Below are positions 1,748 through 25,571 of a stretch of 33,123 nucleotides of DNA, piece by piece. The first letter of the stretch is position 1. Every line of letters starts with the position of its first letter. Source of the DNA: an uncultured virus (IMG/VR IMGVR_UViG_3300013232_000002) (taxonomy: Duplodnaviria; Heunggongvirae; Uroviricota; Caudoviricetes). The notes beneath the pieces were generated by a model. That model saw only the letters and a list, made by a program, of their open reading frames with translations. It made no database searches and was not told the DNA's origin. Made by a program: the position numbers and the translations under genes. The DNA lies in the IMG/VR virus record IMGVR_UViG_3300013232_000002, positions 62,001 to 95,123 of that record; one strand, 5' to 3'.

Positions 1748-2073
1748 GCACACCCGATCTCGGAGTCTGCATTCCGGTGACCTACTCTCGCGTGCGAGAC
1801 GGAGACACCCCGGAGTTCAGGCTGCGTACTGGAATGGCGATCGCAATCAGGCCACTCGATTTCTCCAAGCCGGAAACTAACGAGCCAGGTGGACCCGAGG
1901 CGACTGCTCGACTACATCAGTTACTCTCGGAGGCGAAAGAAATACGATTGTTCTTTCCTCTGGCATCGACCGGGAAAGACCCGATTCTCGACGTCTTCGA
2001 CATCATACGCTCGGTGTTCACTTTTGATCGCGTACTGGCCCACGTTTACGTGGATGGGGAGTTGGTGCAATGA
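1744..2073 (+). CDS. Thermonuclease (SNase-like) domain protein
   Basis: 'RVRDGDT', 'IRPLDFSKPE', 'GGPEATARL' and 'FDRVLAHVYVDG' follow the staphylococcal nuclease motif order. The start ATG at 1744 overlaps the upstream stop (ATGA). Confidence 0.65.
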   Translation: MSTPDLGVCIPVTYSRVRDGDTPEFRLRTGMAIAIRPLDFSKPETNEPGGPEATARLHQLLSEAKEIRLFFPLASTGKDPILDVFDIIRSVFTFDRVLAHVYVDGELVQ

Positions 2074-3410
2074 GGAATATCCTGCTTAGTGCGATTCTGC
2101 TCCTGGCTAGCGTTTGCCAAGCAGGGCAGGTTGAGTGCGAATCCGCTACCTGTCGTGTCACTTGTGGCATGAAGATGGGCACGGGCATCACCATTACGAC
2201 AGGGACTGCTGGGTCTGTCTACGTGCTGACGAATCGGCACGTGGTCGAGCGGGCTCGAAGACCTGCAACGTGTGAATTCTTCATTGGGTCTCCCGTGATG
2301 ACCAGTGCCAAGGGAGAGGTTGTGGCTGTGAGCTACAACTACGACCTGGCAAGCATCAAGATACCCTCGACCCAGTTCATTCACGGCGAGCCTTACACAC
2401 TACCTCTTGCGACCGAGACACCCAAGGTTGGGGACAGCATCATTACTCTTGGGTTTCCTCGTGGCAAAGGACCAACGGCCTATGCGACCACAATTACAGC
2501 GTATGGTGTTTCCACGTTTGATTTTGCTCAGCCTCCTGCCGGTGGTCGCAGTGGTAGTGGCATCTTCGATAGCGATGCGACGCACTTGATTGGATTGCTA
2601 TCGGAACGTGAGTGGTTGAAACACCTCCCCTTGAATAAATGGGGTGGTGGTGAGAACCTTGAATCACTCTACGCCTTCCTGGCGTGGCCTCGCGATGTTG
2701 TAAGGGAACAGGCCAGTGCCCCTGCTGATGTGGTTGCAGAAGACGCTCAGCTATTCAGGCGACGGTTAGCTCCGCAGGGTAACGGTCCTTGCGATCCAGC
2801 CAATCCCAATTGCAAGGGAGGTAACTGCGGGCCTCAACAACAACCGTTTGCAGAGAGTGGTCCTCTGTTGCCGGGATGGGGTGGAGGGCTTCCCAAGCCT
2901 CCAGAGACAAACACACCACTACCACCGGCACCCGAGATTCCCACGGTCCCTGAGGTGGAGCCACCCGCCACACTGCCGACAACAGGCCCTGACGCCAAAC
3001 GTATCGAGGCCTTGGAGAATCTGGTGGCCCAACTGTCCTTCAGGATTGACGCCCTGGAAAAGAAATGCAACGGGGCAGGAACACCTGGACCAGTAGGACC
3101 TGTTGGTCCCACCGGTCCCCGCGGTCTTCAAGGAGAGCCTGGACAATCTGCTTCTCCTGCAGAAGCTCCCGACATCAATGTAATTACATCAGCAGTTGTT
3201 GAGCGGCTTCCCTCCGTCAAGGTTGTGTTGCTGGACGGGCAGGGGAATACTGCGAAAACACTGACTGCAAAACTTGGAGAGCCCATCAAACTTCCGGCCA
3301 CACGTCTTCAGACGTACACGACCGATGGGACCAAGTACACAGAAACAACGGCGCCTCTTGGAGAGCCGCTGGGGTTGAACGCGAAGTTCATTACTAGAAA
3401 GGGCGAGTGA
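2070..3410 (+). CDS. Secreted trypsin-like serine protease with Pro-rich linker, coiled coil and short collagen-like repeat
   Basis: Signal peptide MRNILLSAILLLASVCQA; triad motifs VLTNRHVV (His), YDLA (Asp), GRSGSGIF (Ser); Gly-X-Y run GTPGPVGPVGPTGPRGLQGEPGQ. Confidence 0.8.
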   Translation: MRNILLSAILLLASVCQAGQVECESATCRVTCGMKMGTGITITTGTAGSVYVLTNRHVVERARRPATCEFFIGSPVMTSAKGEVVAVSYNYDLASIKIPSTQFIHGEPYTLPLATETPKVGDSIITLGFPRGKGPTAYATTITAYGVSTFDFAQPPAGGRSGSGIFDSDATHLIGLLSEREWLKHLPLNKWGGGENLESLYAFLAWPRDVVREQASAPADVVAEDAQLFRRRLAPQGNGPCDPANPNCKGGNCGPQQQPFAESGPLLPGWGGGLPKPPETNTPLPPAPEIPTVPEVEPPATLPTTGPDAKRIEALENLVAQLSFRIDALEKKCNGAGTPGPVGPVGPTGPRGLQGEPGQSASPAEAPDINVITSAVVERLPSVKVVLLDGQGNTAKTLTAKLGEPIKLPATRLQTYTTDGTKYTETTAPLGEPLGLNAKFITRKGE

Positions 3411-5061: not shown

Positions 5062-5114
5062 TGAAAGAAAGATATCACTGAGCAGTTTGTATCTGTGATA
5101 TAGAGGGATTGGAT

Positions 5115-8100
5115 ATGCGACTGAAGAACATCGTTTGGTCCGGGTTGGTGTGGTCCCTGTTGATTGCCTCAGTGTTTTCGCAGGGAATGGTAAATGGTGG
5201 TTTCTTCCCTGGTGGTGGAAACGCACAGTATCCCCTGCGAAAACAGCCCTCCCTCTGGCTCGACAGCAGCCCCGGCTACTGCTGGACCGATGCGGCCTGC
5301 CAGTTCAACGCACCGGACAAGTCATCGCTCCAGTCGGCGGATTCGACAACGCTCGATCCCGAAACCAGTGATGTCCTGATTTGCGGTTGGGCGAAGTGGG
5401 ACACGGTCGGCACGATGATGTTGTTCCATAAGTCGTTTGGCAATCACGGCTACCAGATGTATAGCGTTGCTGATGGAACGCTATACGCTCATTTCGGAGA
5501 CGGGACTGAAGTATATGACACGTCGGCGGCAGGGACTGTAATCGCCAACAAATGGTACTTCTTCGCATACCACGCCGACAGAAGCAGTGATTTGAAAGTT
5601 TACGTCGGCGATGCGACCACAACACCAACCGTTGCCATTACGCGAGACATTTCCGCGAGAACCGGAAACGCCAATGCGATCACGGGATTTTGCGTTGGTG
5701 CCGACTCTACGCCAGCGAACCACTTTGACGGCAGCGTTGACTCTCTCATGGTGTTCAAAGCCGCCGACCTCAGCGCCGTCGCCCCCTCGATCATCTCATG
5801 GGCGTGGAACAGCGGTGCAGGCAGGCTCTGTAGTGAGATAACATCAGCACAGAAAACCGCATGGGGAGCGGTATCGGGGTGGGAGCTAGGAGAAGCATCC
5901 GGAACGAGATTTGACTCGTGGGGAACCAATCATTTAAGCCAAGCATTCTCGCCCATCATCAGCCCGACCACGTATGGGGCGGAGTTGCTGACGAATGGTG
6001 ATTTGGATGATTGGACAGGCTCGGACTTAGATAATTGGTATGATGACCCCGGAGATGGTGTACTGGCGAAGGAAACAAGCGACGTTCATACTGCGAGTGG
6101 GAGTGCTTTAAAACTTACGGGTGGATCTACGCCTGCCCTCACTCCACAAAGCGGCTCTTTAGCGATAGCGGTAACTGCGGGTCAAGTTTATCGTTTGTCT
6201 TTTTGGACACATGGCGATGGAATTAACGCAGGTAGGTATACCGTATATAATCCTGATCCACCATCTGGGGTTATTGATAGTATATACCTGACTACGACTG
6301 GTGTGACGGGAACATCGTGGACGCTAGTCACGCGTGATGTTACTATACCGACTGGTGTGTCACAAATTCAGATATACCTTCACTGTCCTAATGCTACTGG
6401 TGGTGCTGCTTACTTCGACGACGTATCCCTCAAAGCCATCACCACCGCAGCTCTCAACAACGGCGGATTCGAGACATGGACCGTGCCATCGGCTGCGGAG
6501 TTGGTGGCGAATGGGAATTTCACGGGCGGGATCACGGGGTGGACGAATAACGTGACCTATCCGTGGGATACGTTTGAAGGTGTTGCTGATGCACTACACC
6601 TTGCAAACAACGGGGATGGCACTCCAGCCAATTGTGCCGTAATATCGACTCCGTTTGCTATGACTGCTGGTGCCGTATATCGGGTGCAATATACTCTGAC
6701 GAAAACCAGCGGGCTCAGCGTTGCGATAGCAATAAAGCGTTCAGAATCGGACGCGAATAATGGATACGCCGCAACTCCGACAGATTCCGGGACGACTACG
6801 GCATATTTCAAGGCCCTATACACCAGTCCTAACGCAACATTCGAGATTACGAAAGACAACAGTAGTGCCTCCGACTGGACCATCGACAACGTCAGCATCA
6901 CCCAGGTGCCCAGCGACTCGACAAGTTGGACGGAGACATCTCAGGGTAGTGGGTACATCAGAAGGGAAGACGATGCACCCGACGCTGGCAGCCACTCATT
7001 GAGAATAGTCACCGACTCGGCAGGGTCTTTTGTTGGTGTGTACCAAACAGCACTCACGACCGGCAAGCTATACTCGGCAGCATTGAGGGCAAAACGATCT
7101 AGCGGCACGGACATACTTGGAGTTGGTGATTCTGTTGGGTCTGGACTATTCCCTGTCACGCCAACGGATGCATGGGCTTCGTACTCTGGGACGTTTCGTG
7201 CTGGTAGTGCTATCGTAATGGTCTACCGCCTGAATGGGGCTCTATCAACAACCGTTACCGACATTGACGGTTTCACCCTCACCGCAGCCGAAATCCTCGC
7301 TGGTCCGGGGATCGTGCGGGGGTTATCGCAGGATAGCGGGTTTGCCACGCAGTTGAACGGGACGAGCCAGTATTTCTCGTACACGGGGACGGCGTTTAAT
7401 CCTGGGACGGGGGACGCAGCATTCGGTTGTTGCATTTACGTCGATTCAATCAAAGACTTCGACATTGTGTCTGGTGGCACTATCGCCGTTGGTGCTGAGT
7501 GTTTTCGCTTGTCAGTACTGCCAGATGGCAGGATTACGTGCGATTTCAACGATGGCGTTGGGGCACGAGTGTCTGGGACAACTACAAATGTCCTGCTGCC
7601 AGGGAACTGGTACACAATCATCCTCAATGTCAAGCGTGATACGGTTGCCACTCTGTACATCAATGGGGCATCATGGTTGACGCTGGATGTGAGCGGCCAT
7701 CAGACGGCGTGTGCTCCTGGTCAATTGTATCTCGGCATTTACGCTGGTGGCGGTCAAGTCTTCCCTGGTCGCATTGACAACGCCTTCTACGCCAACCGCC
7801 TCCTGACCGCTCCAGAAATCGCCTACCTCCACAACAACGGCGAGTGGAGACAGTGGAGCGAGTTGGGCGTTGCAGGGACAGACGGCAGTGCGTTGACCAG
7901 TTCGGTGGTTGTCGGATTCTGGGACTTTGACGCCAAAGCCTCGCTCGGCACCGACGTTGCAAACGACAACGACCTGACGCCACAGGGCACACCCACCCAA
8001 AACAAGGGAATCAACTACTACGAAGGTGCCGTATCATATTGGATGGATCGGAGTGGGAATGGGAAGAATGCGGTAATCACTTCGATGGCGTCATACCCGG

Positions 8101-8615
8101 CTTACTCTAGCGTTTCGACGTTGAACGGAAAGCCGTATGTCTCGTTCGATGGAGTTGATGATTACTTGGCATCCGCTCTCACGAATACGGACGCATATAC
8201 GGTGTTTGCTGTGGGGAAGGCAGTTGATGTATCGGGGTTAACGAATGATCGGCTATGGGCGTTTGGTGGATTGTCAAGTATCTTCGTGAACACCGCGACG
8301 TGGGGATTCTACAGCAACGAGGCGAATGCTGTTGTAGACCTTGGCGGGACTTCCTCAGATTGGTCCATTATCTCGTTCGTCCGCACTAGCAATGCGGTAG
8401 TGAATGCTTACGTTGATGGTGGTACTGCTGTAACAATCGACCCGAGCGACGCGACGGCAGACACTATTCCTTTGACTATTGGTGCTACCGCCGGAACTGC
8501 TAACTTCATGGAAGGCAACATCGCCGCCATCATCGTCTACCCGCGAGCCCTCTCCGCTACCGAGCGTGGGGCGATTACGTCCTGGCTCCAGTCCATTTAT
8601 TCAATCGCACCATGA
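5115..8615 (+). CDS. Large LamG (ConA-like) / CBM4_9-like multidomain protein, putative adhesin or virion appendage, with signal peptide
   Basis: LamG motifs (KWYFFAYH...FDGSVDSL; GNWYTII...GRIDNAFYANRLLTAPEI; GNIAAIIVYPRALS), CBM-like NGxF...DDVSL/IDNVSI repeats and an N-terminal hydrophobic signal. Confidence 0.75.
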   Translation: MRLKNIVWSGLVWSLLIASVFSQGMVNGGFFPGGGNAQYPLRKQPSLWLDSSPGYCWTDAACQFNAPDKSSLQSADSTTLDPETSDVLICGWAKWDTVGTMMLFHKSFGNHGYQMYSVADGTLYAHFGDGTEVYDTSAAGTVIANKWYFFAYHADRSSDLKVYVGDATTTPTVAITRDISARTGNANAITGFCVGADSTPANHFDGSVDSLMVFKAADLSAVAPSIISWAWNSGAGRLCSEITSAQKTAWGAVSGWELGEASGTRFDSWGTNHLSQAFSPIISPTTYGAELLTNGDLDDWTGSDLDNWYDDPGDGVLAKETSDVHTASGSALKLTGGSTPALTPQSGSLAIAVTAGQVYRLSFWTHGDGINAGRYTVYNPDPPSGVIDSIYLTTTGVTGTSWTLVTRDVTIPTGVSQIQIYLHCPNATGGAAYFDDVSLKAITTAALNNGGFETWTVPSAAELVANGNFTGGITGWTNNVTYPWDTFEGVADALHLANNGDGTPANCAVISTPFAMTAGAVYRVQYTLTKTSGLSVAIAIKRSESDANNGYAATPTDSGTTTAYFKALYTSPNATFEITKDNSSASDWTIDNVSITQVPSDSTSWTETSQGSGYIRREDDAPDAGSHSLRIVTDSAGSFVGVYQTALTTGKLYSAALRAKRSSGTDILGVGDSVGSGLFPVTPTDAWASYSGTFRAGSAIVMVYRLNGALSTTVTDIDGFTLTAAEILAGPGIVRGLSQDSGFATQLNGTSQYFSYTGTAFNPGTGDAAFGCCIYVDSIKDFDIVSGGTIAVGAECFRLSVLPDGRITCDFNDGVGARVSGTTTNVLLPGNWYTIILNVKRDTVATLYINGASWLTLDVSGHQTACAPGQLYLGIYAGGGQVFPGRIDNAFYANRLLTAPEIAYLHNNGEWRQWSELGVAGTDGSALTSSVVVGFWDFDAKASLGTDVANDNDLTPQGTPTQNKGINYYEGAVSYWMDRSGNGKNAVITSMASYPAYSSVSTLNGKPYVSFDGVDDYLASALTNTDAYTVFAVGKAVDVSGLTNDRLWAFGGLSSIFVNTATWGFYSNEANAVVDLGGTSSDWSIISFVRTSNAVVNAYVDGGTAVTIDPSDATADTIPLTIGATAGTANFMEGNIAAIIVYPRALSATERGAITSWLQSIYSIAP

Positions 8616-11753: not shown

Positions 11754-12174
11754 GTTTACGTTGCTGATACATCTGCTCCGATTCGTAGTCAATCGCAGCA
11801 ATTCAAAAGCGCAGAAGATGGCCTTCCGTTGGAAACGAGAGGCTCTTAGTGCTATGCGAGAGTTGTCGAAGTTGGAAGTGTCTCTGAAGCGCGAGAGACA
11901 GCAATGTGATCTCGCTTACGACAAGTACCGATCACGATTGGAGGAAGTTGAATCCAAGGTGGACGATCTTCGTCTGTTGATTGAGAGATACGACAAAGCA
12001 GAGGAGGCTTTGAACAACGAGATCGAGCTATACAGGGATGTTCGAGTTCCTGGGTTGCACCTGGCGAACGAAGAGATGTGTCGGCAGATCGAAGCACTCA
12101 TCGCGCTCAACGTGGGAAAGCAAGTAGCCTTCGATCCAACAAGTGGGAAGGGTAATCATGGGATTCTTGACTAA
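11746..12174 (+). CDS. Hypothetical coiled-coil protein
   Basis: Probable ATG 11746; long heptad pattern; overlaps the portal start. Confidence 0.55.
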   Translation: MSRFTLLIHLLRFVVNRSNSKAQKMAFRWKREALSAMRELSKLEVSLKRERQQCDLAYDKYRSRLEEVESKVDDLRLLIERYDKAEEALNNEIELYRDVRVPGLHLANEEMCRQIEALIALNVGKQVAFDPTSGKGNHGILD

Positions 12175-14755
12175 GTCGATCGCATCCAACCGAGCAATCT
12201 CTCAATCTGCTCGAGAGCGAGCGTTGTACGCAAAAGCATCGGGAGGTATGGGCAGCCTGATGGCGACCGGGCCGTACGATGTATTCTCTCAGTGGAACGC
12301 TCGGTCATCCATGAACGACAGGTACACGAAGTACTCGGGTTATCTTTACTCGGCGATTCATGCAATCGCCAAGCAGGCTGCGGGACAGCCGGTTCGTGTT
12401 GGACGGACCCCAGACTCCAAGGAAGACGGAAAGTCGAGGGGATTGACGACAAAGCAGAAGACCGCGATTCGGAAGATGACCCTTCTGTCTGTGAAGCAGA
12501 AGGCAGAGAATGACGGCATCGAGGTTCTCGAAGATCATCCATTGATCAAGGCGTTGGATCACCCCAACGCAGTACAGGGTCGATGGCAGTTCGTTTATTC
12601 ATTCATGGCTAACCTCTGCCTCACAGGCTGGTCTTACGTAGTCTCCGATGCCGATGCGGAGGGCCGACCAGAGATGTGGTCGGTACCGTCGTCGTGGATA
12701 ACACCCGTCCACGACGACGGTCCTTTCTCGTCGTTCAAGATGCTTCAACCTGGGAAGCCAGCGTCGCAGGCGATTCCGTTGAAGAAGGACCAAGTCTCGT
12801 TTGCTCATCTCCCCGATCCAAGCAATCCGTTGTCGGCACTTGCACCCTCGAGTTCGCAGGATCCATCAATCCGCATCAGCGGTCATATCGACAACAGCCG
12901 AGAGAAGTTCTTCGAGAATGGAATCTTCCCAAGTGTGATCGTCACAGTGGGCAAAGACCCCATGCCCGGTGCAGAGGGAGGCGGAGTCCGGCCGAGGCTT
13001 ACCGCTGCGCAGAGAAGGCAGCTCAACGCCGTCATCCGCAAGACGATGGGAGGGGTCGCCAACTATGGGAACCCGGCGATCGTTGATGGGATGATCGAGA
13101 GCATCACCCGGTTTAGCCTGACCGATCAAGAGATGGGTTGGGACAAATCGGATGCTTCCGTTCGTGCCGCAATCTTGGGTGCGTATGGAGTCCATCCATT
13201 CATTCTGGGCAGGGAGATCAGCGTTGGTGGATGGGCGCAAGCCACCATCATTCGCCAACTGTTCTACGATAATGTGAACACCTACCTCAACTTCCTGGGT
13301 GAGGTGGTGACTGGTGTCATCGGGGGAGGACGAGAGAACAACAGACTGGCAGTCTGGTGGGAAGCCTGCGAAGCAGTAGACCCAACCCAGCAAAACTCGA
13401 TGATCCGGTTTGCGCGGCAGAACAACGACATCTCGCAAGACGAGTTCCGCAGCATCCTCGGTCTGGCTCCCGACGAGGATCGCAACCAGCAGGTGCTTGA
13501 GAAGAGCACGGTCACCCCGATCATCACGCTCTTGGACAAAGTGTCACAGGGTGGAATCGAAAACACCCAAGCGATTGCTTTGATGGAAGGGTTGGGTGTG
13601 CCCACCGACATGGCGAAGAGGATTGCTGGCCCGAAGAAGAAACCCCCTGTCCAGCCTCCCGCCGTTCCTGGTGCTCCGGGCCAGCCTCCCATCCCTCCCG
13701 GGCAGCAGCCGAAGCCGGGCCAGCCTGCCGTGCAGCAGGGGCAACCTGAAGAGGAGGAAGAAGAGATCACCACTGAGCAGGCGGCGAAGATGCTCAAGGA
13801 GGCTCTTGGAGAGCTTCGCAAGGACACATCGACACAAGCGAGGTCGGTGGCGTCGATGGTGTTGGAGATGACTGAGTCTAAGCACTTGGCGAATCAACAC
13901 AACCAGCAATCTCATGCCCATGACGGTATGGGAGAGACCAAGCGAGATGCTGACGGGAAGCTGACACTCTCCGACGGAAAGCCTCTGCCCGATCACATTC
14001 CGAAGAACATACCACCGGCGTGGAAAGAGGTGATGGTTGCAATGGATCCCAAGGCCGAGTTGCTGGTCAAGGGAAAAGATGCAAAGGGACGATACCAGAG
14101 CGTCTACTCGAAAGCACATTGGGCAGAAGCAGCAGAGTCCAAGTTTGCCCGTGCCAATGAGATCCGTGCCAAGGAAGACCAGATCCGCAAGGAGATCGAG
14201 AAGGACGCCAAGAGCAAGGATCCCAAGACTCGCGACAGCGCTGCGTGTCTTCGGTTGATTCAACACACGGGGCTTCGTCCCGGCAGTGAGAAGGACACGG
14301 GAGCCGAGAAGCAGGCCTACGGGGCCACCACCATCCAGGGAAAGCACGTGGTTGTGAAGGGAGACAAAGTACGTCTTCGGTTTGTGGGGAAGAAGGGAGT
14401 CGACCTCGACATCGAGGTGACGGATCCCGTGGTGAAAGCCGACTTGATCGCCAGGAAAAGCACCGCCGGGCCTAGCGGCAAGTTGTATAATAATACGGGG
14501 GATTCCCAGCTTCTTGCCTATGCGAAGGATCGTGACGGTGGTGGTTTCAAAGTGAAGGATTTCCGGACTGCTCGCGGGACTTCTGAGGCGGTCGAGGTGA
14601 TCAAGAAGATGAAGGCGCCGAAGACTGAGAAGGAGTACAAGAAGGCAGTGAAGGAAGTTGCAACAGCCGTGTCGAAGAAGCTGGGAAATACTCCTACTGT
14701 CGCGCAACAATCGTACATCGATGCGGCAGTGTTCTCTGTTTGGAGAATTAAGTGA
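12158..14755 (+). CDS. HK97-type portal protein fused to a C-terminal DNA topoisomerase IB domain
   Basis: Portal motifs 'YSAIHAIAKQAAG', 'HPLIKALDHPN', 'LCLTGWSY', 'FFENGIFPS', 'ILGAYGVHP', 'ISQDEFRSILGL'. After a Pro/Gln linker and His motif come TopIB motifs IPPAW, GKDAKGRYQSVY, TGLRPGSE, YGATT, FVGKKG, KDFRT, LGNTPTVAQQSYID. Confidence 0.9.
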   Translation: MGFLTKSIASNRAISQSARERALYAKASGGMGSLMATGPYDVFSQWNARSSMNDRYTKYSGYLYSAIHAIAKQAAGQPVRVGRTPDSKEDGKSRGLTTKQKTAIRKMTLLSVKQKAENDGIEVLEDHPLIKALDHPNAVQGRWQFVYSFMANLCLTGWSYVVSDADAEGRPEMWSVPSSWITPVHDDGPFSSFKMLQPGKPASQAIPLKKDQVSFAHLPDPSNPLSALAPSSSQDPSIRISGHIDNSREKFFENGIFPSVIVTVGKDPMPGAEGGGVRPRLTAAQRRQLNAVIRKTMGGVANYGNPAIVDGMIESITRFSLTDQEMGWDKSDASVRAAILGAYGVHPFILGREISVGGWAQATIIRQLFYDNVNTYLNFLGEVVTGVIGGGRENNRLAVWWEACEAVDPTQQNSMIRFARQNNDISQDEFRSILGLAPDEDRNQQVLEKSTVTPIITLLDKVSQGGIENTQAIALMEGLGVPTDMAKRIAGPKKKPPVQPPAVPGAPGQPPIPPGQQPKPGQPAVQQGQPEEEEEEITTEQAAKMLKEALGELRKDTSTQARSVASMVLEMTESKHLANQHNQQSHAHDGMGETKRDADGKLTLSDGKPLPDHIPKNIPPAWKEVMVAMDPKAELLVKGKDAKGRYQSVYSKAHWAEAAESKFARANEIRAKEDQIRKEIEKDAKSKDPKTRDSAACLRLIQHTGLRPGSEKDTGAEKQAYGATTIQGKHVVVKGDKVRLRFVGKKGVDLDIEVTDPVVKADLIARKSTAGPSGKLYNNTGDSQLLAYAKDRDGGGFKVKDFRTARGTSEAVEVIKKMKAPKTEKEYKKAVKEVATAVSKKLGNTPTVAQQSYIDAAVFSVWRIK

Positions 14756-14756
14756 G

Positions 14757-15170
14757 ATGGCGGATGATTCGCTTGCGAAACTGTTGGTTGTTGCTTCACA
14801 GGCTGTTCGTCTGAAGCAGATCGAATCTACTCGGACAATCCGCCGTGCCGTTGCTAGGGAGATTCACACCAAGCAGGCTGGCAAGACGGAGGTTTCGATT
14901 GCGAGAGTAGTCTCCAAGGAGATCGACAAGCAGGTTGACGACATCGCCAAGAAACTTGGAACTGGGTCGAAGTTGAATTCCAAGGAGAATCTGAAGAAGT
15001 GGAAGAACTCGTTGATTGACGCAGTGCTTCCCGTGCTGGCGATCAAGATGGCAGAGGCGGCGGTGGCTCAGATGATCATGGTTGGTGTGAATCCACGAAG
15101 CAAGGGTGCAAGGGTTCTCACTCAGAGGAAGCATGAGGTTGAAGATGGAAGTATTTGGACAAGAGAGTGA
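14757..15170 (+). CDS. Helical protein, possibly the detached N-terminal part of the MuF head morphogenesis protein
   Basis: Starts 1 nt after the portal stop; helical and basic; occupies the position where the MuF N-terminus normally follows the portal. Confidence 0.5.
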   Translation: MADDSLAKLLVVASQAVRLKQIESTRTIRRAVAREIHTKQAGKTEVSIARVVSKEIDKQVDDIAKKLGTGSKLNSKENLKKWKNSLIDAVLPVLAIKMAEAAVAQMIMVGVNPRSKGARVLTQRKHEVEDGSIWTRE

Positions 15171-15315
15171 TGTATTCTTCGGGGAAATCTCGGACAAGGA
15201 TCCTCCCGACTGGAGAGAAGAGCTCGAAAACGAAGAGGATCCGGATGACGAGGAGCTCGACGAAACGTCCGCGGACGTGATTGCCATGTTGGGATTCGAT
15301 CCCAAGGAAATGTGA
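15133..15315 (+). CDS. Small highly acidic protein (60 aa)
   Basis: GAGG RBS before ATG 15133; sequence PDWREELENEEDPDDEELDETSADVIAMLGFDP. Confidence 0.6.
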   Translation: MRLKMEVFGQESDVFFGEISDKDPPDWREELENEEDPDDEELDETSADVIAMLGFDPKEM

Positions 15316-15327
15316 AAGGACCGCGTC

Positions 15328-15801
15328 ATGAAAGAGGTCGAGAAACTCGAAACCCTGAAGCACTTAACGTCGGCTGCGAAGAGCCTGTGCGAAATGACCA
15401 AGCATCTGAACGGCCAGCATGACCAATCCGAGCACGGTCACGGCGGTGGTGGAGGTGGTGCTGCTGGAACCGCGAAGCCTTCCAAAGCGGAGGAGTACAA
15501 GAAGGAGACCGGATTGGATCTTCCTCCCAGGAACGCTGAGGAGAAGTGGAAGAAGTCATACGGCTTCAAGAACGCGGCTCCTGGTGATATCGCCTACATG
15601 GATCAAGGCACGAAGGACGCATACAAACTCCACATCATGAAGATTCACGAAGATGTGAAGAACGGAACACCTGGAGTCTCTGGTGTAGTGCTCGATGACT
15701 TAAACAAACCCATTCGCGACATCTCCGATTCTTCCAGATTCGAGATGAAGTGGGCTTACGACGATCAGGTCGGAGCCGTATATAAGAAGCCGAAGAAATG
15801 A
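15328..15801 (+). CDS. His-motif-tagged hypothetical protein
   Basis: AAAGGA RBS; carries KHLNGQHDQSEHGH plus a Gly linker followed by a ~110 aa domain. Confidence 0.7.
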   Translation: MKEVEKLETLKHLTSAAKSLCEMTKHLNGQHDQSEHGHGGGGGGAAGTAKPSKAEEYKKETGLDLPPRNAEEKWKKSYGFKNAAPGDIAYMDQGTKDAYKLHIMKIHEDVKNGTPGVSGVVLDDLNKPIRDISDSSRFEMKWAYDDQVGAVYKKPKK

Positions 15802-18191
15802 CTACTGCAACAGAATGGCTGCTCGATAACCCCGAAGACGTCGAAGCTCTTAGCGAGCTGCTGATGGGTGTTGAGGATCTCCCGATTCGCTTGTGGACCG
15901 AAATCCCCAAGTGGATGAAGCAGGAGATCGCCAACCAACTGAAGGTCACTTTCGAGCAGCCATACTGGGACGACATTGCCAAGACCACCCTTGGTGATGC
16001 CGAGCGGGCTCTCGAGGCTGGCTTGCAGGAGGGGTGGTCCATTCGCAAGATCGCCAGCCAGATGCGAGAGTCGTTGGGTGGGGATCGGTACGCCAAAGTA
16101 CGGGCCTTGAACATCGCGAGAACTGAGTGCCTACCTGCCGACACTGTCGTCAATGGGGCAAATGTTGAATCTGTGTACAGGAGATTTTATTCTGGGCCTT
16201 TTGTTAAAGTCATCACCAAAGCAGGTCGAGAATTCTCCGGTACCCCGAATCACCCAGTGTTGACGACTAGAGGCTGGGTTGGACTTGGCGATCTCAAGAA
16301 ATCGGATAATCTTGTTTGCTACGGATTTGGTGTCAAAAAACTTGGTTTTTCTGGACGCCCAGACATAAATCACCCACCAACCACGATCGGCGATATATTT
16401 GATTCTCTTGCGGCAATAGGGATTGGAGAGAGGAGATTCGGAAGTAATGAAGATTTCCACGGCGATGGGATGAATGGCGAGATCGATGTTTTTGCTTCCA
16501 ACGGCTTTTTGTCTTATGGGAATTATTCCCCTATCGAGCAAAGCAGAGTAGATAATGTCTTCACCGAATCCGACTTTCGCCACACTCTTCTCGTTGCCGA
16601 GGGCAATCTTCTCTCTTGTGGGATCAGCGAGTCTAGCGGCCTCGGAGTAGTTTCTCAAAGCCATTCCCGATTTTATGATGACCCTTTGTATGCTTGCCGG
16701 ATCGACACTGAGGGATTTTGCTATCGTAGGGCAGGATTCTCCATTTACATACCTCGCAACAATTTCGGAAGTACGGTCTGTGAGGTGTTTGGTGGAGGAT
16801 CGGTACCCAGTAGCGAGCATCAATCTACGGGCTTCTTTTCTACTCCTTCTCTCTACTCCGAATCTCTTACAAATTCTGAGGATGGTGTATTTGCTACATC
16901 CCATGATCTTGCTAACAGCAATGCTGCTGAGACCGGATTTGTAGAGATCGATCAACTTCAGAGTATCATCAGAATTGAATCGTGGAGTGGGCATGTTTTT
17001 AACCTTACTACTAAGGATAGGTTTTTCAGTATAGCCGATGGTGTGTTTACGGGCAACTGCGGCAACGCATTGAATGGGGCCAGGAAGGCCTCGATCAACC
17101 GCCTAGTCGAGGACGTGGGCGATGATGTACCGATGCGCTCCACGTGGCTCAGCGTCCTGGCGAATACGACCAGAGACACCCACGCCAACCTCGATGGTAC
17201 TCCATGTGACAAGGATGGGATGTGGAGGCTGGGAGGTGTGAAAATACCTTGGCCTAGTCATGTCTCATTGCCGGCGAAGGAACGCTGCAACTGCATGTGC
17301 AGTCTAACCATCGACTTCGGAATGAATGAGTCGGCAGCTCATGAAGCGATCCAGGAGTACTATGACCGAGTAGATGACTACGAAGCAAAGTCAGTCAAGC
17401 ATCTCCCTGGGCAGCATGATCAGATGTCGCATGCTCATGGAGGAAGCTCTGTCGAGCAAACTCTGCGAAGTGGTAAGTACGAATCAGAGAGGATCAACAC
17501 AGAGACTGCATCTGGTGGTTTCTTCAAGATGACCTTCGAGGACGGAACGATCGGTGTGTACAAGAGAGGTGGGGATTACGAGCCCAACATCAGGATCACC
17601 GTGGAAGCAGGAACACACTACCGACGAGAGGCCGCATTTTATGATGTGGCGAAGGTGGTGGGGAATGAGGATCTAGTTCCGGAAACGGTGGTCCGTAGGA
17701 ATGATGTGACCAACATCGAGGGATCGGTACAGAAGTTCGTCAAGGATGCGCAAGCCATCGATAATCACATCCTGATCGACAACTGGTATGGAAAGAGTAA
17801 GAAGGACATCGCTCGTGCTGCCGCACAAGACTTCGTGATGGGAAACACGGATCGTCATCAAGGCAATTGGGTACTGAGCAAGGGGAAGATCCAGTTGATC
17901 GACAACGGTTTGTCTGTTCCTGTTCGTATTTCGTCTGGGAATACGCAGAGGGAAGAATTGCGACGCATCACCGATCTCGGATTTGTGCAGCAGGCTTCGG
18001 CAAACTCTATGAGTTTGAAGTCAGTGCGAAAACAGTGGGAAGGTAAGTGGGAGGAAATCGAGAAGGTGATGAAAAGTCATGAAATCGATTACGGGGGAAT
18101 CGCGGATGCTAAGAAGCGTTACGACATGTTGATGGATCCGAAGTATAAAGACTTCTACGAGTTGACGCAGGCCTACAGAGGGAGCCTTTGA
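15798..18191 (+). CDS. MuF (SPP1 gp7-like) head morphogenesis protein with intein and C-terminal PI3K/HipA-like kinase domain
   Basis: MuF motifs 'RALNIARTE', 'WLSV...TRDTHANLDG', 'P...LPAKERCNCMC'. Kinase motifs 'GVYKRG', 'RREAAFY', 'VPETV', 'GSVQKFV', 'DFVMGNTDRHQGN', 'LIDNG'. Confidence 0.85.
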   Translation: MTTATEWLLDNPEDVEALSELLMGVEDLPIRLWTEIPKWMKQEIANQLKVTFEQPYWDDIAKTTLGDAERALEAGLQEGWSIRKIASQMRESLGGDRYAKVRALNIARTECLPADTVVNGANVESVYRRFYSGPFVKVITKAGREFSGTPNHPVLTTRGWVGLGDLKKSDNLVCYGFGVKKLGFSGRPDINHPPTTIGDIFDSLAAIGIGERRFGSNEDFHGDGMNGEIDVFASNGFLSYGNYSPIEQSRVDNVFTESDFRHTLLVAEGNLLSCGISESSGLGVVSQSHSRFYDDPLYACRIDTEGFCYRRAGFSIYIPRNNFGSTVCEVFGGGSVPSSEHQSTGFFSTPSLYSESLTNSEDGVFATSHDLANSNAAETGFVEIDQLQSIIRIESWSGHVFNLTTKDRFFSIADGVFTGNCGNALNGARKASINRLVEDVGDDVPMRSTWLSVLANTTRDTHANLDGTPCDKDGMWRLGGVKIPWPSHVSLPAKERCNCMCSLTIDFGMNESAAHEAIQEYYDRVDDYEAKSVKHLPGQHDQMSHAHGGSSVEQTLRSGKYESERINTETASGGFFKMTFEDGTIGVYKRGGDYEPNIRITVEAGTHYRREAAFYDVAKVVGNEDLVPETVVRRNDVTNIEGSVQKFVKDAQAIDNHILIDNWYGKSKKDIARAAAQDFVMGNTDRHQGNWVLSKGKIQLIDNGLSVPVRISSGNTQREELRRITDLGFVQQASANSMSLKSVRKQWEGKWEEIEKVMKSHEIDYGGIADAKKRYDMLMDPKYKDFYELTQAYRGSL
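16128..17057 (+). mobile_element. Intein (310 aa) in the MuF domain
   Basis: Block A CLPADTVV directly after ARTE; block B GTPNHPVLT; block F WSGHVFNLTT; C-terminus VFTGN followed by Cys+1. The segment looks more AT-rich than its flanks. Confidence 0.88.
16131..16994 (-). CDS. Antisense-encoded putative homing endonuclease (two HTH-like units + DUF559/Vsr-like PD-(D/E)xK nuclease) inside the intein
   Basis: HTH-like 'LIDLYKSGLSSIAVSKIMGCSKYTILRICKRFGVERR' and 'VARYVNGESCPTIAKSLSVDPASIQRVI'; nuclease 'GEDIIYSALLDRG...RQKAVGSKNIDLAIHPIAVEI...RGWWVIYVW'; SD-like TAAGGT just upstream of the ATG on the minus strand. Confidence 0.75.
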   Translation of the reverse strand: MPTPRFNSDDTLKLIDLYKSGLSSIAVSKIMGCSKYTILRICKRFGVERRSRKEARRLMLATGYRSSTKHLTDRTSEIVARYVNGESCPTIAKSLSVDPASIQRVIIKSGMALRNYSEAARLADPTREKIALGNEKSVAKVGFGEDIIYSALLDRGIIPIRQKAVGSKNIDLAIHPIAVEIFITSESPLSNPYCRKRIKYIADRGWWVIYVWASRKTKFFDTKSVANKIIRFLEIAKSNPASSRQHWVIRGTGEFSTCFGDDFNKRPRIKSPVHRFNICPIDDSVGR

Positions 18192-21100
18192 TGCGAGTGG
18201 ACTTCTATCGACTTGACGAAGTGATCGGATCCATCCGCCTCGAAGATGGTGCTCTAATTGCAGACTCTTCTGTCGAGCATGTACTGGAGTCGGAGATTTA
18301 CGTACAGGGGACGTACTCTGCAGTAAAAACCCCAAGTGCGTTTCTGGAGAACCTCTATCTCTACTATCGATCTCCATATTTCTACGCGACTAAGATGCAG
18401 GAAGGGGATGCAGTCAAAGGGACCAAGCACCTTCCTGGAGAGCACGACCAACAAGACCACGCTCATGGCAAACTACTTGCAGTAGAGAACATCGAAGAAG
18501 GTGTTGGTGAACAGACTTTGTCGTACAAGGACTTTTCCAAGTGGAAAGGTTTGCGAAAGAAGATCGCAAACCTCGCGTTGTTTGATATCCAAACAAACAA
18601 ATTTGCAGGAATCATAGGCAGGTCGGAAGATGGCAAAGTCGTATCAATAGTCAGTTTGATGGGAGTTGGAAAGGGCTCTTCGATCGAGGTTGTAGATTTT
18701 GCGACTGGAGAACCCGGGTACGGTCGAAAGATGATGGCGGCCATCTGTGCTGTGGCCAGCAAACACAAACAAGGAATCACACTAACCAGTACCGAAGAAG
18801 CCTATGGTTTCTACGAGAAGATTGGAATGACAGATGCTGGCATGAATGTCAGCCTCAAGAAGTACGAGTTCACGAAGGAGCAGGCCAAGAAGTTCGCGAA
18901 AGATAATGCGGACACAAAGGCAAAGGACGAAGAGCCTGCTAATGGTGTTTTTGCTGTGCGGGTCAAAGCGACCAAGCACCTTCCAGGGCAGCATGATCAA
19001 TCAACGCATGGGCACGGGACAGGATCCCTGTCTGGTGTGAATGTCAGCAAGTGGTCGATGAACAACTCGTCGGCGAAGAGCTCAGCCAAGAAGATTGACA
19101 CGCTCGAGAAGTTGGCCGAGGCCGAGGACTGGACCGAGATCCTCAAGGTCGCATCATCGCAGCCTCCCAAGGGCGCCAATACCTATCAAAAGGGAGTGAT
19201 TCAGGCAGCGAAGAATCTGCTTGCCCACAAGAACAACGTAGTCGTTGCTCAAGCACCTGCTAAAGACTTGAAGACGAACAACGGTCTCGTTGATGCATCT
19301 CAGTGGAAGCAGGTCGGTCCCAAGTTGGGAACGCAACCGGGCGGGAAGTTCGTCGGGGAAGATGGTAAGGAGTACTATGTAAAATACCCAGAGAACCCCG
19401 ACGTCGCTCGAAACGAGGTGATCGCCAACAAGCTATACGAGATGACCGGGGCAGGTGTACCCAAGGCCCATCTCGTAGAAGGGCCTGACGGTAAAGTCGG
19501 TGTTGCTACGGAGTGGGACAACAATGCACAGAAGGCCAACTGGGGTGATGCCAGCACAAGAGAGCTGGCAGCGAAGGATTTCGCTACGCACGCCTGGTTG
19601 GCTAACTGGGACTGTGTTGGAGCAGGCTCCGAAAATCCAATGGACAACATCCGCATCTCTAACGGCAAGGCCGTGTCTGTTGATGTGGGTGGTTCGTTGG
19701 CTTATTCGGGTCTTGGTGGCAGCAAGCCCTTTGGAAAAATCTCCAATGAATGGGATACACTACGTGACACGAGTGTCAATCCAAGCTCGGCGAAAGTCTT
19801 TTCGAAGATGACTAAGGAGCAATTGATTGAGTCATCCGAGAAGATGAATATGGTGACGCGAGCTGGCATTGAGGCCATAGTGGAAACGTACCATGCCGGT
19901 GGTGCCGATAACTACATGAAGAAACAGAATCTCATCGATACGCTGATGTATCGAAGGTTCGATGTTCTTACCAGGGGAGAAAACTTAAAGAAGCAGATTG
20001 CAGAAAAGCCGGCTCCTCCCACAACCATCACCAAGCCGGATGGTTCTTCTGCTATCAGCAAACCCGTGCCGGCAACCATTCCACCGATGGTTATGCTCGG
20101 GTCAGGAAACAACGGATCACTGAAGTCTGCTCAGAACACGGCCAACAAGATGCACGAGCTTGCATCGCAAGGGAAGTGGGCCGAGTTGGAGGCGATGAAG
20201 ACCAACCCGGACAGCAAGAGTCACTACTACAAGAAGGTACATCAGTTCAAGCAAGACCTGCTCGCTGCGAAGAATGGTGGAGCTGTTGTTGATACCAAAC
20301 CACCGGCTACTCCGAAACCAGCGGTTACTCCGAAACCAGCGAATACACCAACGATCAACACAGCGGCATTTCCAACGAAACCGACGTTCTCTTCAACCAA
20401 TCTGACGCAGGTGTCGGTCAACAACGCGGCAGTAGAGAAGGCGTTGGAGCATGCCAAGAACGGAGACGTGTTTGCTCTGAAGAATATGACCCTCCCAGGG
20501 AGTCCCAAGCTAGCAGCGTGGCATGGGTCCCTGGTGGAAAACGTAGCATCGCAGATGAATCCGCCACCTCCGGCACGACAGCTCTCTGGTTCTCTGTCCG
20601 AAATCGCCAATAAAGCGAAGGTCGTCGTCGGAAAGGATTTGCCGACGAAGGTTGGAAAGTTTCTGGTTCTGGGAGAAGCGTCTCCCATTCCTACTGACGC
20701 TGTTCAGCCTAAACAGATACGTGCTGAATGGGAAAAGGGAAAGGACTCTTACAACAAACTCAACAATGCAGAAAAAGAGGCCATCAAAGACTACACCGGT
20801 GGTTCTTTCTACAGCATGAATCATCAGCTGCGTAACTTCAAAAAACTTACACCAGACACGGAGAGTGCTTGTTCTGCATTGAAAAAAGCGTCGATACCAC
20901 TTCCAGTTGGAATGAAACTCTCTCGTGGAATACCCGTATCAGGAGTAGAGGTAGAGAATCTAAGAAACTCGGTTGGCAAAGTTCTCCAGGATCGAGGGAT
21001 CATCAGTACATCTACCGGGAGTGGTTTTAGTGGAAACGTGAAAATGACATTTGTGGCGGGTCCTGGTGCGAAGGGACTTCCTGCGAAGAGGTTCAGTCAC

Positions 21101-21235
21101 GTCACGTCGGAGAACGAGTACATTCTTCCTCCGAACTCTCGTTTCTTGGTTACGGAAGCTGCAGATAAAAATGGAACCCTCCACGTCACCATGACCATCC
21201 TGCCCTTCGAAGACTCACAATGCTGCCCACCGTGA
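18188..21235 (+). CDS. Polyvalent effector protein: small N-terminal domain, His motif, GNAT, His motif, HipA/PI3K-like kinase, helical repeats, VIP2-like ADP-ribosyltransferase
   Basis: GNAT 'GEPGYGRKMMAAI...LTSTEEAYGFYEKIGM'; kinase-like 'GTQPGGKF..EYYVK..ARNEVIANKLY..WLANWD..DNI..VDVGGSL'; ART 'AIKDYTGGSFYSMNHQLR..LSRG..ISTS..ENEYILP' (R-S-E). Confidence 0.82.
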   Translation: MMRVDFYRLDEVIGSIRLEDGALIADSSVEHVLESEIYVQGTYSAVKTPSAFLENLYLYYRSPYFYATKMQEGDAVKGTKHLPGEHDQQDHAHGKLLAVENIEEGVGEQTLSYKDFSKWKGLRKKIANLALFDIQTNKFAGIIGRSEDGKVVSIVSLMGVGKGSSIEVVDFATGEPGYGRKMMAAICAVASKHKQGITLTSTEEAYGFYEKIGMTDAGMNVSLKKYEFTKEQAKKFAKDNADTKAKDEEPANGVFAVRVKATKHLPGQHDQSTHGHGTGSLSGVNVSKWSMNNSSAKSSAKKIDTLEKLAEAEDWTEILKVASSQPPKGANTYQKGVIQAAKNLLAHKNNVVVAQAPAKDLKTNNGLVDASQWKQVGPKLGTQPGGKFVGEDGKEYYVKYPENPDVARNEVIANKLYEMTGAGVPKAHLVEGPDGKVGVATEWDNNAQKANWGDASTRELAAKDFATHAWLANWDCVGAGSENPMDNIRISNGKAVSVDVGGSLAYSGLGGSKPFGKISNEWDTLRDTSVNPSSAKVFSKMTKEQLIESSEKMNMVTRAGIEAIVETYHAGGADNYMKKQNLIDTLMYRRFDVLTRGENLKKQIAEKPAPPTTITKPDGSSAISKPVPATIPPMVMLGSGNNGSLKSAQNTANKMHELASQGKWAELEAMKTNPDSKSHYYKKVHQFKQDLLAAKNGGAVVDTKPPATPKPAVTPKPANTPTINTAAFPTKPTFSSTNLTQVSVNNAAVEKALEHAKNGDVFALKNMTLPGSPKLAAWHGSLVENVASQMNPPPPARQLSGSLSEIANKAKVVVGKDLPTKVGKFLVLGEASPIPTDAVQPKQIRAEWEKGKDSYNKLNNAEKEAIKDYTGGSFYSMNHQLRNFKKLTPDTESACSALKKASIPLPVGMKLSRGIPVSGVEVENLRNSVGKVLQDRGIISTSTGSGFSGNVKMTFVAGPGAKGLPAKRFSHVTSENEYILPPNSRFLVTEAADKNGTLHVTMTILPFEDSQCCPP

Positions 21236-23729: not shown

Positions 23730-25571
23730 GTGAAGAAGATGACAGCCAACGACAAGTTGCTCGAGGGAATTCGAAGCAGGCAGCAGAAGAAGACCGAGTT
23801 CAATTACGGGATCCTCACGGCGGACAAGTACGTTGGAACGATCCAGGAGATGCTCGGTCATCCCTTCTGCTACCGCCACTTCTCGAAGACAACTACCAGC
23901 TTCTCCGATGTCCTGGAAAAGGCATCGAGGACCCTGGTCTACGGCAACCAAGACATGGTTGTCGATGATAGTGACTTTTCGATCGAAGGCATCGAACTTC
24001 CGAAGAACTACTTGGTCGTTTTCAGGCACATCCTGACCACGCCTCGGAAAGACCGGGACGGCGACATCCTGCGTACCGAGGGCATGATTCCCGATCCCAA
24101 GATGCTGTTGCTATGGCAGCATGTTCACACCATGCCCATCGGCAAGATGCTGGCGATTCAGGAGCACAACAGCAAGGTGCTTCGGCTGGTCTCCTGCGTC
24201 GTGGACATGAATCCGCTCTGCCATGACTCGGCGGTGATGATCGAGAACAAGATGGGGCGATTCAGCCACGGCTTCCGAGCCATCAAGTTCAGCAAGGTGA
24301 AGGAATCGCCTGGAGAATCTGAGGCTGGCTACGACATCAAGGAAGCGGAGATCATGGAAGAGTCTCTGGTGTCCGTTCCGGCGAATATCGATGCCGAGCA
24401 GGAGGAAGTGCTTCTCTCGTTGGTGGAGGGAGGCAAGTTGACCAGCGCCATCATGAAGCGTGTTGGCAAGAGGATCCGTAGCAAGAGACCGATCAGCGTT
24501 CCTGTCATGGTCGATCTCAAGCTGTCAATCAACGGCCAGGAGATCAGCGATGGAAAAGAAAAGCAAGTCCAAGTCAAAGCCGGCTCACCAAAAGAAGCCC
24601 ATGAAGGTGACGACGAAGTCGGTGGACAAGGACAAGAAGGACCATCCACCGACGCGAAAGGGGTGAAGTCGATTCTTCCCTGCGGCGGTATCAACGGTTC
24701 ATGGGAGTGGGTCCGTAATTCTCTTTACAACAAGGCTGAGACGTTCCTTGTGGATAAGGGGGTCATTTCACAACGCCCAACCATCAACTCCGGCGAAGTA
24801 CCGATGGGCCGATTCGTGTGGTTGGTTTCCACCTTCCCGGATTATGCGATTGTTTGCGCGGAGAATTTCAACAATAAGCCGTCCGATACCTACTACAAGT
24901 GCTACTGGCACTTGGGCGAGAAGGCGGTTCCTGAATTCTACGGCGAGCCCAAGGAGGTTACTGTGACCGTGTCGACCGAGATCCGAGAGAAGGGCTTGCT
25001 GGATGCCGCGAAGAGTTTGTGGCAGAAGGGAAAGAAGCCCAAGAGCGACGAAGAGGAAGACGAGAAGGAGCAGGACAAGAAGCCTGCGGCTTGTCCCAAG
25101 TGCGGCAGCGAAGACATCGACGAAGACGGTGTCTGCCAGGACTGCGGATATGAGATGGACGAGAGCGAGAAGCCGGAGGACGAAGAGGACAAGAAGAAAT
25201 CCTCACTCACCGGCGACAAGCGTGGCCGCGTTCTCTCCTCCAGCAATGAGGGCCTGATCAAGGAGGCCCTGGAATACCTCGACGAGGGGCACAAGATGGA
25301 TGGTGTGCCCAAACCCTGCAAGGCCTGTATCGGCCATGCTAAGGGCAATCTCTCCACGGTCATGGGGACCTTGGGAACCAGCGATGAAGGTGAAGCCTCC
25401 TCGAAGCCGGTCGAGAAGGAAGAAGTCACCGCCGACGGAGCGGCGATTCTGTTTCTTGCGAGTTCGACACCTGCCGACCGCAAGAAGATGGAAGGCATTC
25501 TCAAGCATCTCGTCTCTATGGACGAGCAAGAGAGTGTCACCCGGCAGTACCTGGCCCTCGCGGGACAGTAG
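23730..25571 (+). CDS. HK97-family prohead protease with long C-terminal extension (Zn ribbon, scaffold-like region)
   Basis: 'DRDGDI', 'LLWQH..MPIGK', 'FSHGF', 'EESLVSVPAN'; CPKC..CQDC; 'KRGRVLSSSN'. Confidence 0.88.
   Translation: MKKMTANDKLLEGIRSRQQKKTEFNYGILTADKYVGTIQEMLGHPFCYRHFSKTTTSFSDVLEKASRTLVYGNQDMVVDDSDFSIEGIELPKNYLVVFRHILTTPRKDRDGDILRTEGMIPDPKMLLLWQHVHTMPIGKMLAIQEHNSKVLRLVSCVVDMNPLCHDSAVMIENKMGRFSHGFRAIKFSKVKESPGESEAGYDIKEAEIMEESLVSVPANIDAEQEEVLLSLVEGGKLTSAIMKRVGKRIRSKRPISVPVMVDLKLSINGQEISDGKEKQVQVKAGSPKEAHEGDDEVGGQGQEGPSTDAKGVKSILPCGGINGSWEWVRNSLYNKAETFLVDKGVISQRPTINSGEVPMGRFVWLVSTFPDYAIVCAENFNNKPSDTYYKCYWHLGEKAVPEFYGEPKEVTVTVSTEIREKGLLDAAKSLWQKGKKPKSDEEEDEKEQDKKPAACPKCGSEDIDEDGVCQDCGYEMDESEKPEDEEDKKKSSLTGDKRGRVLSSSNEGLIKEALEYLDEGHKMDGVPKPCKACIGHAKGNLSTVMGTLGTSDEGEASSKPVEKEEVTADGAAILFLASSTPADRKKMEGILKHLVSMDEQESVTRQYLALAGQ

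Follow-up and report, generated by a model that had tools for sequence, protein, structure and literature searches.

A portal protein of an uncultured tailed phage carries a C-terminal type IB topoisomerase, a candidate head cargo joined at a lineage-specific motif

We analysed a stretch of 33,123 nucleotides (hereafter, the window) from an uncultured tailed phage, which forms the last 33 kb of the complete 95,123-bp virus record IMGVR_UViG_3300013232_000002. Our subject is a gene on the plus strand of this window whose predicted product joins a phage portal protein to a type IB topoisomerase (TopIB). The record is complete with direct terminal repeats of 141 bp. Head and packaging genes lie around the portal on the same strand (terminase end, adaptor, MuF, protease-like, capsid and tape measure genes), and the window further holds lectin-like and fibre-like genes and a gene for a 1015-aa protein. 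The coordinates are collected in Table 1.

The listing of open reading frames (ORFs) gave one uninterrupted frame on the plus strand at 12143..14755, with 870 codons from a GTG. The likely start is the ATG at 12158, six codons into this frame and with GGGAAGGG directly upstream. Translation could alternatively begin at the GTG (12143) or at an ATG at 12248, the choice of public gene callers (835 aa; P0002). Unless stated otherwise, residues are numbered from the GTG at 12143. Two Pfam families matched above their cut-offs: PF04860 (Phage_portal) at residues 108-440 (86.4 bits, cut-off 39.1; E=2.8e-24) and PF01028 (Topoisom_I) at residues 663-856 (91.9 bits, cut-off 23.7; E=5e-26). Top1B_N_bact (PF21338) matched residues 623-646 with 19.5 bits, under its cut-off of 27, and the protein gave no Pfam match to PF04233 (MuF). 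In PHROGs, the N-terminal part was a portal (phrog_12 and phrog_2662; E=1e-28). An initial annotation of the window had described portal and topoisomerase as fused in frame with no stop between them and had proposed a Topoisom_I profile search as a check. The single open frame, the two Pfam domains over their cut-offs and the E value for PF01028 agree with that description. The Pro/Gln/Glu stretch (approximately residues 501-541) and the His motif (580-595) also lie where the annotation had placed them. At the level of sequence, we regard it as confirmed that a single chain joins an HK97-type portal to a TopIB.

A phmmer search of the C-terminal 284 residues against PDB chains aligned residues 622-865 to the TopIB of Deinococcus radiodurans (2f4q; E=7e-22). 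Residues R712, K750, R808, N849 and Y858 paired with 2f4q positions 137, 174, 239, 280 and 289, which we take to be the catalytic residues of that enzyme; the alignment contexts were gl-R-pg, fvg-K-kg, kdf-R-t, lg-N-tp and s-Y-i. All five residues were invariant in 120 of 120 aligned related modules. The intact bacterial-type pentad (R, K, R, N and Y) noted in the initial annotation is thus borne out by the alignment and by conservation, and the enzyme is probably active, as judged from its sequence. The D. radiodurans TopIB (2f4q, 3m4a) was the best sequence match and has the same R-K-R-N-Y pentad with asparagine in fourth place. It is a free cellular protein of 346 residues, whereas the phage module comprises ~271 residues, is fused and C-terminal, and shares ~26-28% identity with it.

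We modelled the last 271 residues, the TopIB module, with AlphaFold2 (AF2) on a 25-row alignment. The mean predicted local distance difference test (pLDDT) score was 92.9 and the best Foldseek matches of the model were TopIBs throughout. The catalytic domain of the D. radiodurans enzyme superposed on the model with Z scores of 19-20.5. Model residues 1-271 aligned to residues 6-287 of the 314 of variola TopIB (2h7f; VIA-align, Z 21.5, root-mean-square deviation 3.5, 263 residues), whereas tyrosine recombinases reached Z scores of at most 15.4. Like the poxvirus enzymes (variola 2h7f and 3igc, vaccinia 1a41), the module would be a minimal two-domain TopIB, and it aligned to them over the full length of the model. 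Unlike the module, with which they share 20-21% identity, the poxvirus enzymes come from eukaryotic viruses, are free rather than fused to a structural protein and are ~27 residues longer at the C-terminus. In the poxvirus pentad, histidine takes the place of asparagine.

The chain ends 12 residues past Y858, at a point equal to variola residue 287 of 314, and the C-terminal segment that follows the catalytic tyrosine in solved enzymes was not found in the module. According to the model, in which both domains are present, the module is a complete two-domain TopIB short of only the last ~27 poxvirus residues. The 'complete-looking' topoisomerase of the initial annotation stands in this sense. 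We searched the module against 1.84 billion cluster representatives (clusters at 50% identity), and in 135 of the 149 best representatives it lay at most 20 aa from the C-terminus. Since so many relatives share it, the short end is characteristic of the clade rather than a loss particular to this phage.

Table 1. Features of the portal-TopIB locus (positions in the window) and types of junction motif
Feature	Position	Strand	Description
Portal-TopIB gene	12158..14755	+	probable ATG start at 12158, 865 aa; TGA stop 14753-14755
Portal core	12464..13462	+	PF04860 match, residues 108-440; PHROG portal families; 119 relatives
Pro/Gln/Glu-rich tail	13649..13768	+	pLDDT <50 at 498-537 (ATG numbering), predicted disordered; tail of this kind also in bare relatives
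Two terminal helices, EITTEQAAKMLKEALGELRK...MVLEMTES	13772..13876	+	predicted helices 539-554 and 559-573 (ATG numbering); natural C-terminus of the clade's bare portals
Junction motif KHLANQHNQQSHAHDG	13880..13927	+	first of five KHLxGQHDQxxHxHG-type motifs in head genes
TopIB module, 271 aa	13940..14752	+	N-terminal beta domain and catalytic domain (Pfam, PDB alignment, AF2 model)
Codon of R712	14276-14278	+	catalytic residue
Codon of K750	14390-14392	+	catalytic residue
Codon of R808	14564-14566	+	catalytic residue
Codon of N849	14687-14689	+	catalytic residue
Codon of Y858	14714-14716	+	catalytic residue
ORF X, 137 aa	14757..15170	+	putative orphaned carrier domain; homologous to the N-terminus of relatives' TopIB proteins
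Small acidic ORF, 56 aa (...FFGE..PPDWR..DPDDEELDETSADVIAMLGFDPKEM)	15145..15315	+	usual downstream neighbour of TopIB; ends AMLGFDPKEM
157-aa gene	15328..15801	+	short leader, KHLNGQHDQSEHGHGG motif, Gly run, ~110-aa domain; candidate free-standing tagged cargo
MuF-like head protein with intein	15798..18191	+	KHLPGQHDQMSHAHGG motif ahead of C-terminal domain
1015-aa multi-enzyme head protein	18188..21235	+	two KHLPG(E/Q)HDQ motifs; weak GNAT match at 146-222; ADP-ribosyltransferase (PF03496) at 851-993
Candidate prohead protease or scaffold	23730..25571	+	weak Peptidase_S78 match (E 4.5e-4, 20.8 bits, cut-off 21); PHROG head protease and major head protein
Motif type KHLPGQHDQ..H.HG			ahead of TopIB; type of this phage
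Motif type E-x-x-HPR-D/G..G-K/R-F			ahead of TopIB modules in relatives
Motif type GG.GSGNFGH.GRPG.VGGS			ahead of TopIB modules in relatives
Motif type F-D/N-P.Q.RD..G-R/K-W			ahead of TopIB modules in relatives
Motif type NP.H..GRF			ahead of TopIB modules in relatives
Motif type C.TG.GGF.PGN.C			ahead of TopIB modules in relatives
Motif type GHEFHGNQW			ahead of TopIB modules in relatives

To locate the end of the portal, we compared its 119 closest relatives (42-65% identity). Bare portals of <650 aa made up 94 of them and 25 were extended. The bare portals had the same Pro-rich acidic tail and the same closing helices. In the nearest one (P0122; 65% identity, 560 aa), the chain ends at precisely the point from which the window protein goes on with KHLANQHNQQSHAHDG, and portal P0124 has the same type of motif at the same position. 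The initial annotation had taken the Pro/Gln/Glu stretch for the fusion linker. This assignment is ruled out, since the stretch is the native tail of the clade's bare portals, which end just before the His motif; the alignments place the true junction at the His motif itself. Of the 25 extended portals, 11 matched a regular expression (regex) for the linker at residues 533-579, as did one of the 94 short ones. In a full-length model (865 aa, numbered from the ATG at 12158), the portal was folded to residue ~490 and the TopIB occupied residues 590-865 with pLDDT >90. Disorder was predicted at 498-537 and at 573-588, and in the latter segment, which contains the His motif, pLDDT was <50.

By hand count, other Pfam domains occurred on 10 of the 119 portal relatives (2H phosphoesterase, ADP-ribosyltransferase (ART), PF23474, zeta-toxin-like kinase and collagen). 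Besides the window's own protein, none of the 119 carried a TopIB. A survey of what related portals carry at this position, as the initial annotation had suggested, thus turned up unrelated enzymes at the same spot and a TopIB in none. These comparisons indicate that the portal C-terminus is a general cargo slot.

Directly downstream of the fused gene begins ORF X, for which neither Pfam nor PHROGs gave a match. Its homologues are the N-terminal carriers of TopIB proteins, among them P0003 (E=2.4e-49), P0247, P0254, P0009 and others, including those of loci L007, L044 and L008. The TopIB of P0003 is 71% identical to that of the window. In all four IMG/VR loci with a homologous portal (L007, L044, L008 and L019; 44-52% identity), a bare portal was followed by X-...-TopIB. 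The ORF X of the window stops where the motif would begin, and on a 335-nt contig of a relative X reads on into LPGQHDQQDH. We infer a transfer of the TopIB, at the motif, from X to the portal, with the truncated X as its leftover.

The same arrangement would result from a misassembly in which the repeated motif falsely bridged a bare portal and a TopIB gene. The motif is present five times in 5.1 kb, the relatives have the gene order portal, then X-TopIB, and the fused protein was seen on one contig only. Nor did a read lie over the junction: for 13,880-13,940, one public run (0.06 of sampled words) gave four short contigs of relatives, none of them spanning. The DNA copies of the motif, however, are only 63-75% alike and offer no long exact repeat on which an assembler could err, and the portal copy did not group with the others. 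Moreover, the frame is open over 865 codons, and ORF X closes with a diverged tail and a stop of its own instead of a broken join. PF04860 is also fused to TopIB independently, through other linkers (L040/P0063 and P0058), and the genome in the record is complete, with terminal repeats. We consider an assembly artefact very improbable.

The module is widespread. It matched 5503 representatives at E≤1e-3 and 1197 at E≤1e-30, and the best 150 matches were 259 to 1813 aa long. At least 150 aa stood ahead of the module in 110 of the 149 best representatives, whereas the other 39 had short leaders of <150 aa. By hand count, 50 of the 119 long TopIB relatives (478-1523 aa) belonged to a portal family (PF06381 40, PF05136 4, PF06074 4 and PF04860 2) and 14 contained MuF; further domains in this set were NUDIX, ART, InPase, 2H and PARP. 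The module ended within 10 residues of the C-terminus in 100 of these 119, again by hand count. An independent sample came from IMG/VR (236 stretches matched, 80 loci kept). The Pfam scan of this sample took in 71 of its 75 distinct TopIB ORFs, and 25 of the 71 were portal fusions (PF06381 19, PF05136 3, PF06074 2 and PF04860 1). MuF was the partner in four, NUDIX in six, ART in one and GATase in one, and TopIB was the sole Pfam family in 34. Across carriers (portals of four families, MuF, multi-enzyme proteins and short leaders), the modules shared 50-70% identity. Public annotation pipelines already label them 'DNA topoisomerase IB'. From these sequences, the TopIB appears as a shuffling cargo module.

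A short motif followed by a Gly run stood nearly always ahead of the module, and we distinguished seven motif types (Table 1). In the window, the type of this phage occurs five times on the plus strand: in the portal gene (13883), in the 157-aa ORF (15403), in the MuF gene (17400) and twice in the gene of the 1015-aa protein (18428 and 18977). The copies span 5.1 kb and each lies at a domain border with a different domain behind it. The remainder of the 95-kb genome holds none on either strand. Seven regexes, run over 82 sources (81 loci of 8 kb and the window), gave 126 matches on the coding strand vs one on the reverse strand. Motif pairs within a locus were of the same type in 98 of 103 cases (shuffle mean 40, maximum 62; 0 of 2000 shuffles reached 98), a figure that is inflated by near-duplicate loci and shared ancestry. 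The motif type would thus track the phage lineage and not the cargo, which suggests that the phage encodes the factor by which it is read. A cutting site of the head protease was ruled out as an explanation of the motif, which is absent from the capsid and protease genes. Literature matches to the motif strings GQHDQ and EHPRD were to unrelated texts only.

What the fusion may do can be weighed against these results. Portals are dodecamers whose C-termini face the capsid interior, and because of this orientation the C-terminal TopIB is expected on the inner side of the capsid. The reading we favour, with moderate confidence, is that the portal is a vehicle that loads up to 12 TopIB molecules per procapsid. 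The enzyme would belong to a set of several head cargoes of the phage and would act on DNA at about the time the genome enters. This reading draws on the generality of the slot, on the company of obvious effectors in which the TopIB travels and on the nearest relatives, whose TopIB lies off the portal.

Alternatively, the TopIB could remain tethered on the portal crown and relieve torsion during packaging or ejection, or hold the DNA end, without ever being released. TopIB requires no ATP, and such a role would need no cleavage. In the model, a partly disordered tether of ~90 residues connects the enzyme with the portal core. Portals of four families also carry the module, as does MuF, a protein that adjoins and binds the portal in SPP1, as described in the text of Jamet et al. 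(2017; PMC5576092). A tethered role, however, would hardly account for the same slot on related portals being filled by ART and 2H phosphoesterase, for which no packaging role is conceivable. It would also have to accommodate the TopIBs behind short leaders (39 of 149 representatives), those within chains with NUDIX, InPase or ART domains, and the nearest relatives with their TopIB off the portal. Since the same slot takes unrelated enzymes, a packaged and injected cargo is favoured, and we think a permanently tethered enzyme unlikely.

If the TopIB is a cargo, up to 12 copies would come to lie at the portal vertex of each procapsid, and the enzyme would need no targeting step of its own; we infer this packaging from the position of the module. 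The TopIB would be one of several interchangeable cargoes (GNAT-like, ART, kinase-like and the 110-aa domain of no recognised family), each behind the same motif. Given its place in a flexible segment and its link to the lineage and not to the cargo, the motif may be recognised by a phage-encoded factor as a signal for hand-off or processing. We speculate that the enzyme is then freed by cleavage and leaves the head with the DNA. Poxvirus TopIB is borne in the virion and is held to relax supercoils. In the cell, the phage enzyme might likewise relax supercoils without ATP, and either the incoming genome or the host DNA is a conceivable target. Searches of the whole genome gave no match to PF00589 (Phage_integrase), PF00521 (GyrA/ParC) or PF01131 (type IA topoisomerase), which makes the TopIB the only recognisable topoisomerase of this genome. 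The rest of the genome encodes parts of a family A DNA polymerase, a clamp-loader-like ATPase, RecA-like, FEN and SbcCD-like proteins and an SNF2 helicase.

Several points weigh against a released cargo. Without cleavage, the tether would keep the enzyme at the portal and prevent its ejection. A role in the portal channel would be just as compatible with the carriers, which are mostly portals or the portal-binding MuF. No copy of the motif occurs in the genes for the capsid protein and the protease of the phage, and it is therefore not evidently a maturation site of the head protease. The ~27 C-terminal residues of variola TopIB are absent from the module, and the junction comes from one assembly, with P0002 on one contig and no spanning read. 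Finally, packaging, enzyme activity and cleavage are predictions for every member of the family.

A small acidic ORF is the usual neighbour of the TopIB. In the IMG/VR sample, the acidic module (..HFG...DWR...DPDDEEL.ETP.DV.AMLGFDP) lay directly 3' of the TopIB ORF in 66 of 80 loci, and in the window ORF X lies between the two. It occurred as a free small ORF, as the N-terminus of the next long head protein or as a continuation of the TopIB frame (L048 and L086). Its LGFDP was invariant across 54 distinct aligned sequences. A predicted complex of the TopIB module with the acidic peptide scored 0.24, below the mark of 0.32, and speaks neither for nor against binding.

This neighbour bears on a further possibility, that the TopIB damages DNA or shuts off the host as an effector of the MuF polymorphic-toxin type, with the acidic protein as its immunity factor or inhibitor. 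Immunity proteins are usually variable, whereas the acidic module is conserved. It is also often the N-terminus of the next long head protein, and so seemingly packaged itself. The genome gave no integrase match, whereas MuF toxins are tied to temperate phages, and the pentad, competent for religation, is fully conserved. A guarded toxin would nevertheless fit the frequent acidic ORF 3' of the TopIB and its occasional place in the TopIB frame. An effector domain with a small downstream gene is, in addition, a published architecture: the MuF polymorphic toxins in the text of Jamet et al. (2017; PMC5576092) share with our case a head protein as carrier, a variable C-terminal enzyme and a small downstream gene. 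Unlike the toxins described there, the carrier here is the portal itself with no N-terminal MuF, and no integrase was found in the genome. The word 'topoisomerase' is absent from the main text of that paper and from six of its seven supplementary files, the seventh being a picture-only PDF that cannot be searched. We find a toxin with its guard distinctly improbable.

A bolder scenario combines these elements. Many uncultured tailed phages would carry TopIB in the capsid, here on all twelve portal subunits, and a lineage-specific motif code (KHLPGQHDQ, HPRD..GRF, GSGNFGH.GRPG and others) would plug any enzyme onto the portal, MuF or a leader. The acidic peptide would be a dedicated partner of the TopIB, for example a DNA-mimic guard that holds the enzyme away from the packed genome until ejection. 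In the boldest form, the tethered TopIB ring would be a swivel or gate at the portal. We offer this scenario as an improbable one.

Portal- and MuF-fused effectors are already known, and TopIB as such a cargo is seemingly undescribed. Iyer, Burroughs, Anand, de Souza and Aravind (2017; PMC5512222) described effectors fused to portals or MuF, including portal fusions with PBECR, 2H and InPase domains, and proposed that they are packaged and injected. As in the main text of that paper, the enzyme of the window is C-terminal on a head protein and its gene lies among virion genes. TopIB is, however, not among the domains of the main text, where 'topoisomerase' occurs once, in a reference (the FTP supplements lie outside this negative), and linker motifs are not described in that text.

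TopIBs of cultured phages (Xanthomonas jumbo phages PhiXhv-12/15/16 and Bacteroides phage BS162P1) are annotated as topoisomerase or topoisomerase 1B and matched the module weakly (26-33% identity). They had no portal fusion; the TopIB of BS162P1 is a stand-alone gene of 254 aa and that of PhiXhv-15 a protein of 668 aa. The portal part had no match at E≤1e-5 among 50,697 GenBank phage records, so that this collection offers no cultured phage as a model. A literature search for a TopIB in a phage virion or on a portal found no paper. A virion-borne topoisomerase is textbook knowledge for poxviruses; for phages, none has been described within reach of this literature search, despite the abundance of the module (1197 clusters at E≤1e-30). 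If the enzyme is packaged, phages would manage DNA topology at genome entry or packaging with an enzyme of their own, a TopIB of only ~270 residues. The window would be the cleanest stoichiometric case, with one gene and, if uncleaved, 12 copies per head. Both the junction motifs and the acidic peptide are open to direct and cheap experiments on the loading and release of head cargo, and such knowledge could serve to load chosen proteins into capsids.

Of the neighbouring head genes, the 157-aa gene had no match in Pfam or PHROGs. The product of the 1015-aa gene is, judged by its predicted domains, a polyvalent-type cargo protein. The product of 23730..25571 is a possible processing enzyme for head proteins. 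In the C-terminal part of the MuF protein (17400-18191), a domain of ~250 aa, Pfam gave a weak PI3/PI4-kinase-like match (E=8.9e-5, below cut-off), and this domain may be a kinase-like cargo.

The MuF intein contains an antisense ORF of 287 aa (16131-16994, minus strand) with helix-turn-helix matches and endonuclease-like hits in PHROGs. The sense frame of the intein is open across the same 864 nt, where the GC content falls to 48.5%. The MuF intein of L001/L009 has the same antisense ORF (37% identity over 266 aa). The homing-endonuclease-like gene of this intein looks as if it lay on the opposite strand.

Two genes between the terminase and the portal resemble those of tail fibres, for which a place upstream of the head genes is unusual. 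The one at 2070-3410 encodes a trypsin-like peptidase whose tail is collagen- or fibre-like, and the product of 5109-8615 (1168 aa) contains Laminin_G_3 and CBM_4_9 domains. Elsewhere in the genome, beyond the window, a gene for GTP cyclohydrolase I (E=1e-70; genome positions 33161-34111) lies among the replication genes and several methyltransferase genes lie at 10.9-14.2 kb of the genome; together they may hint at DNA or nucleotide modification.

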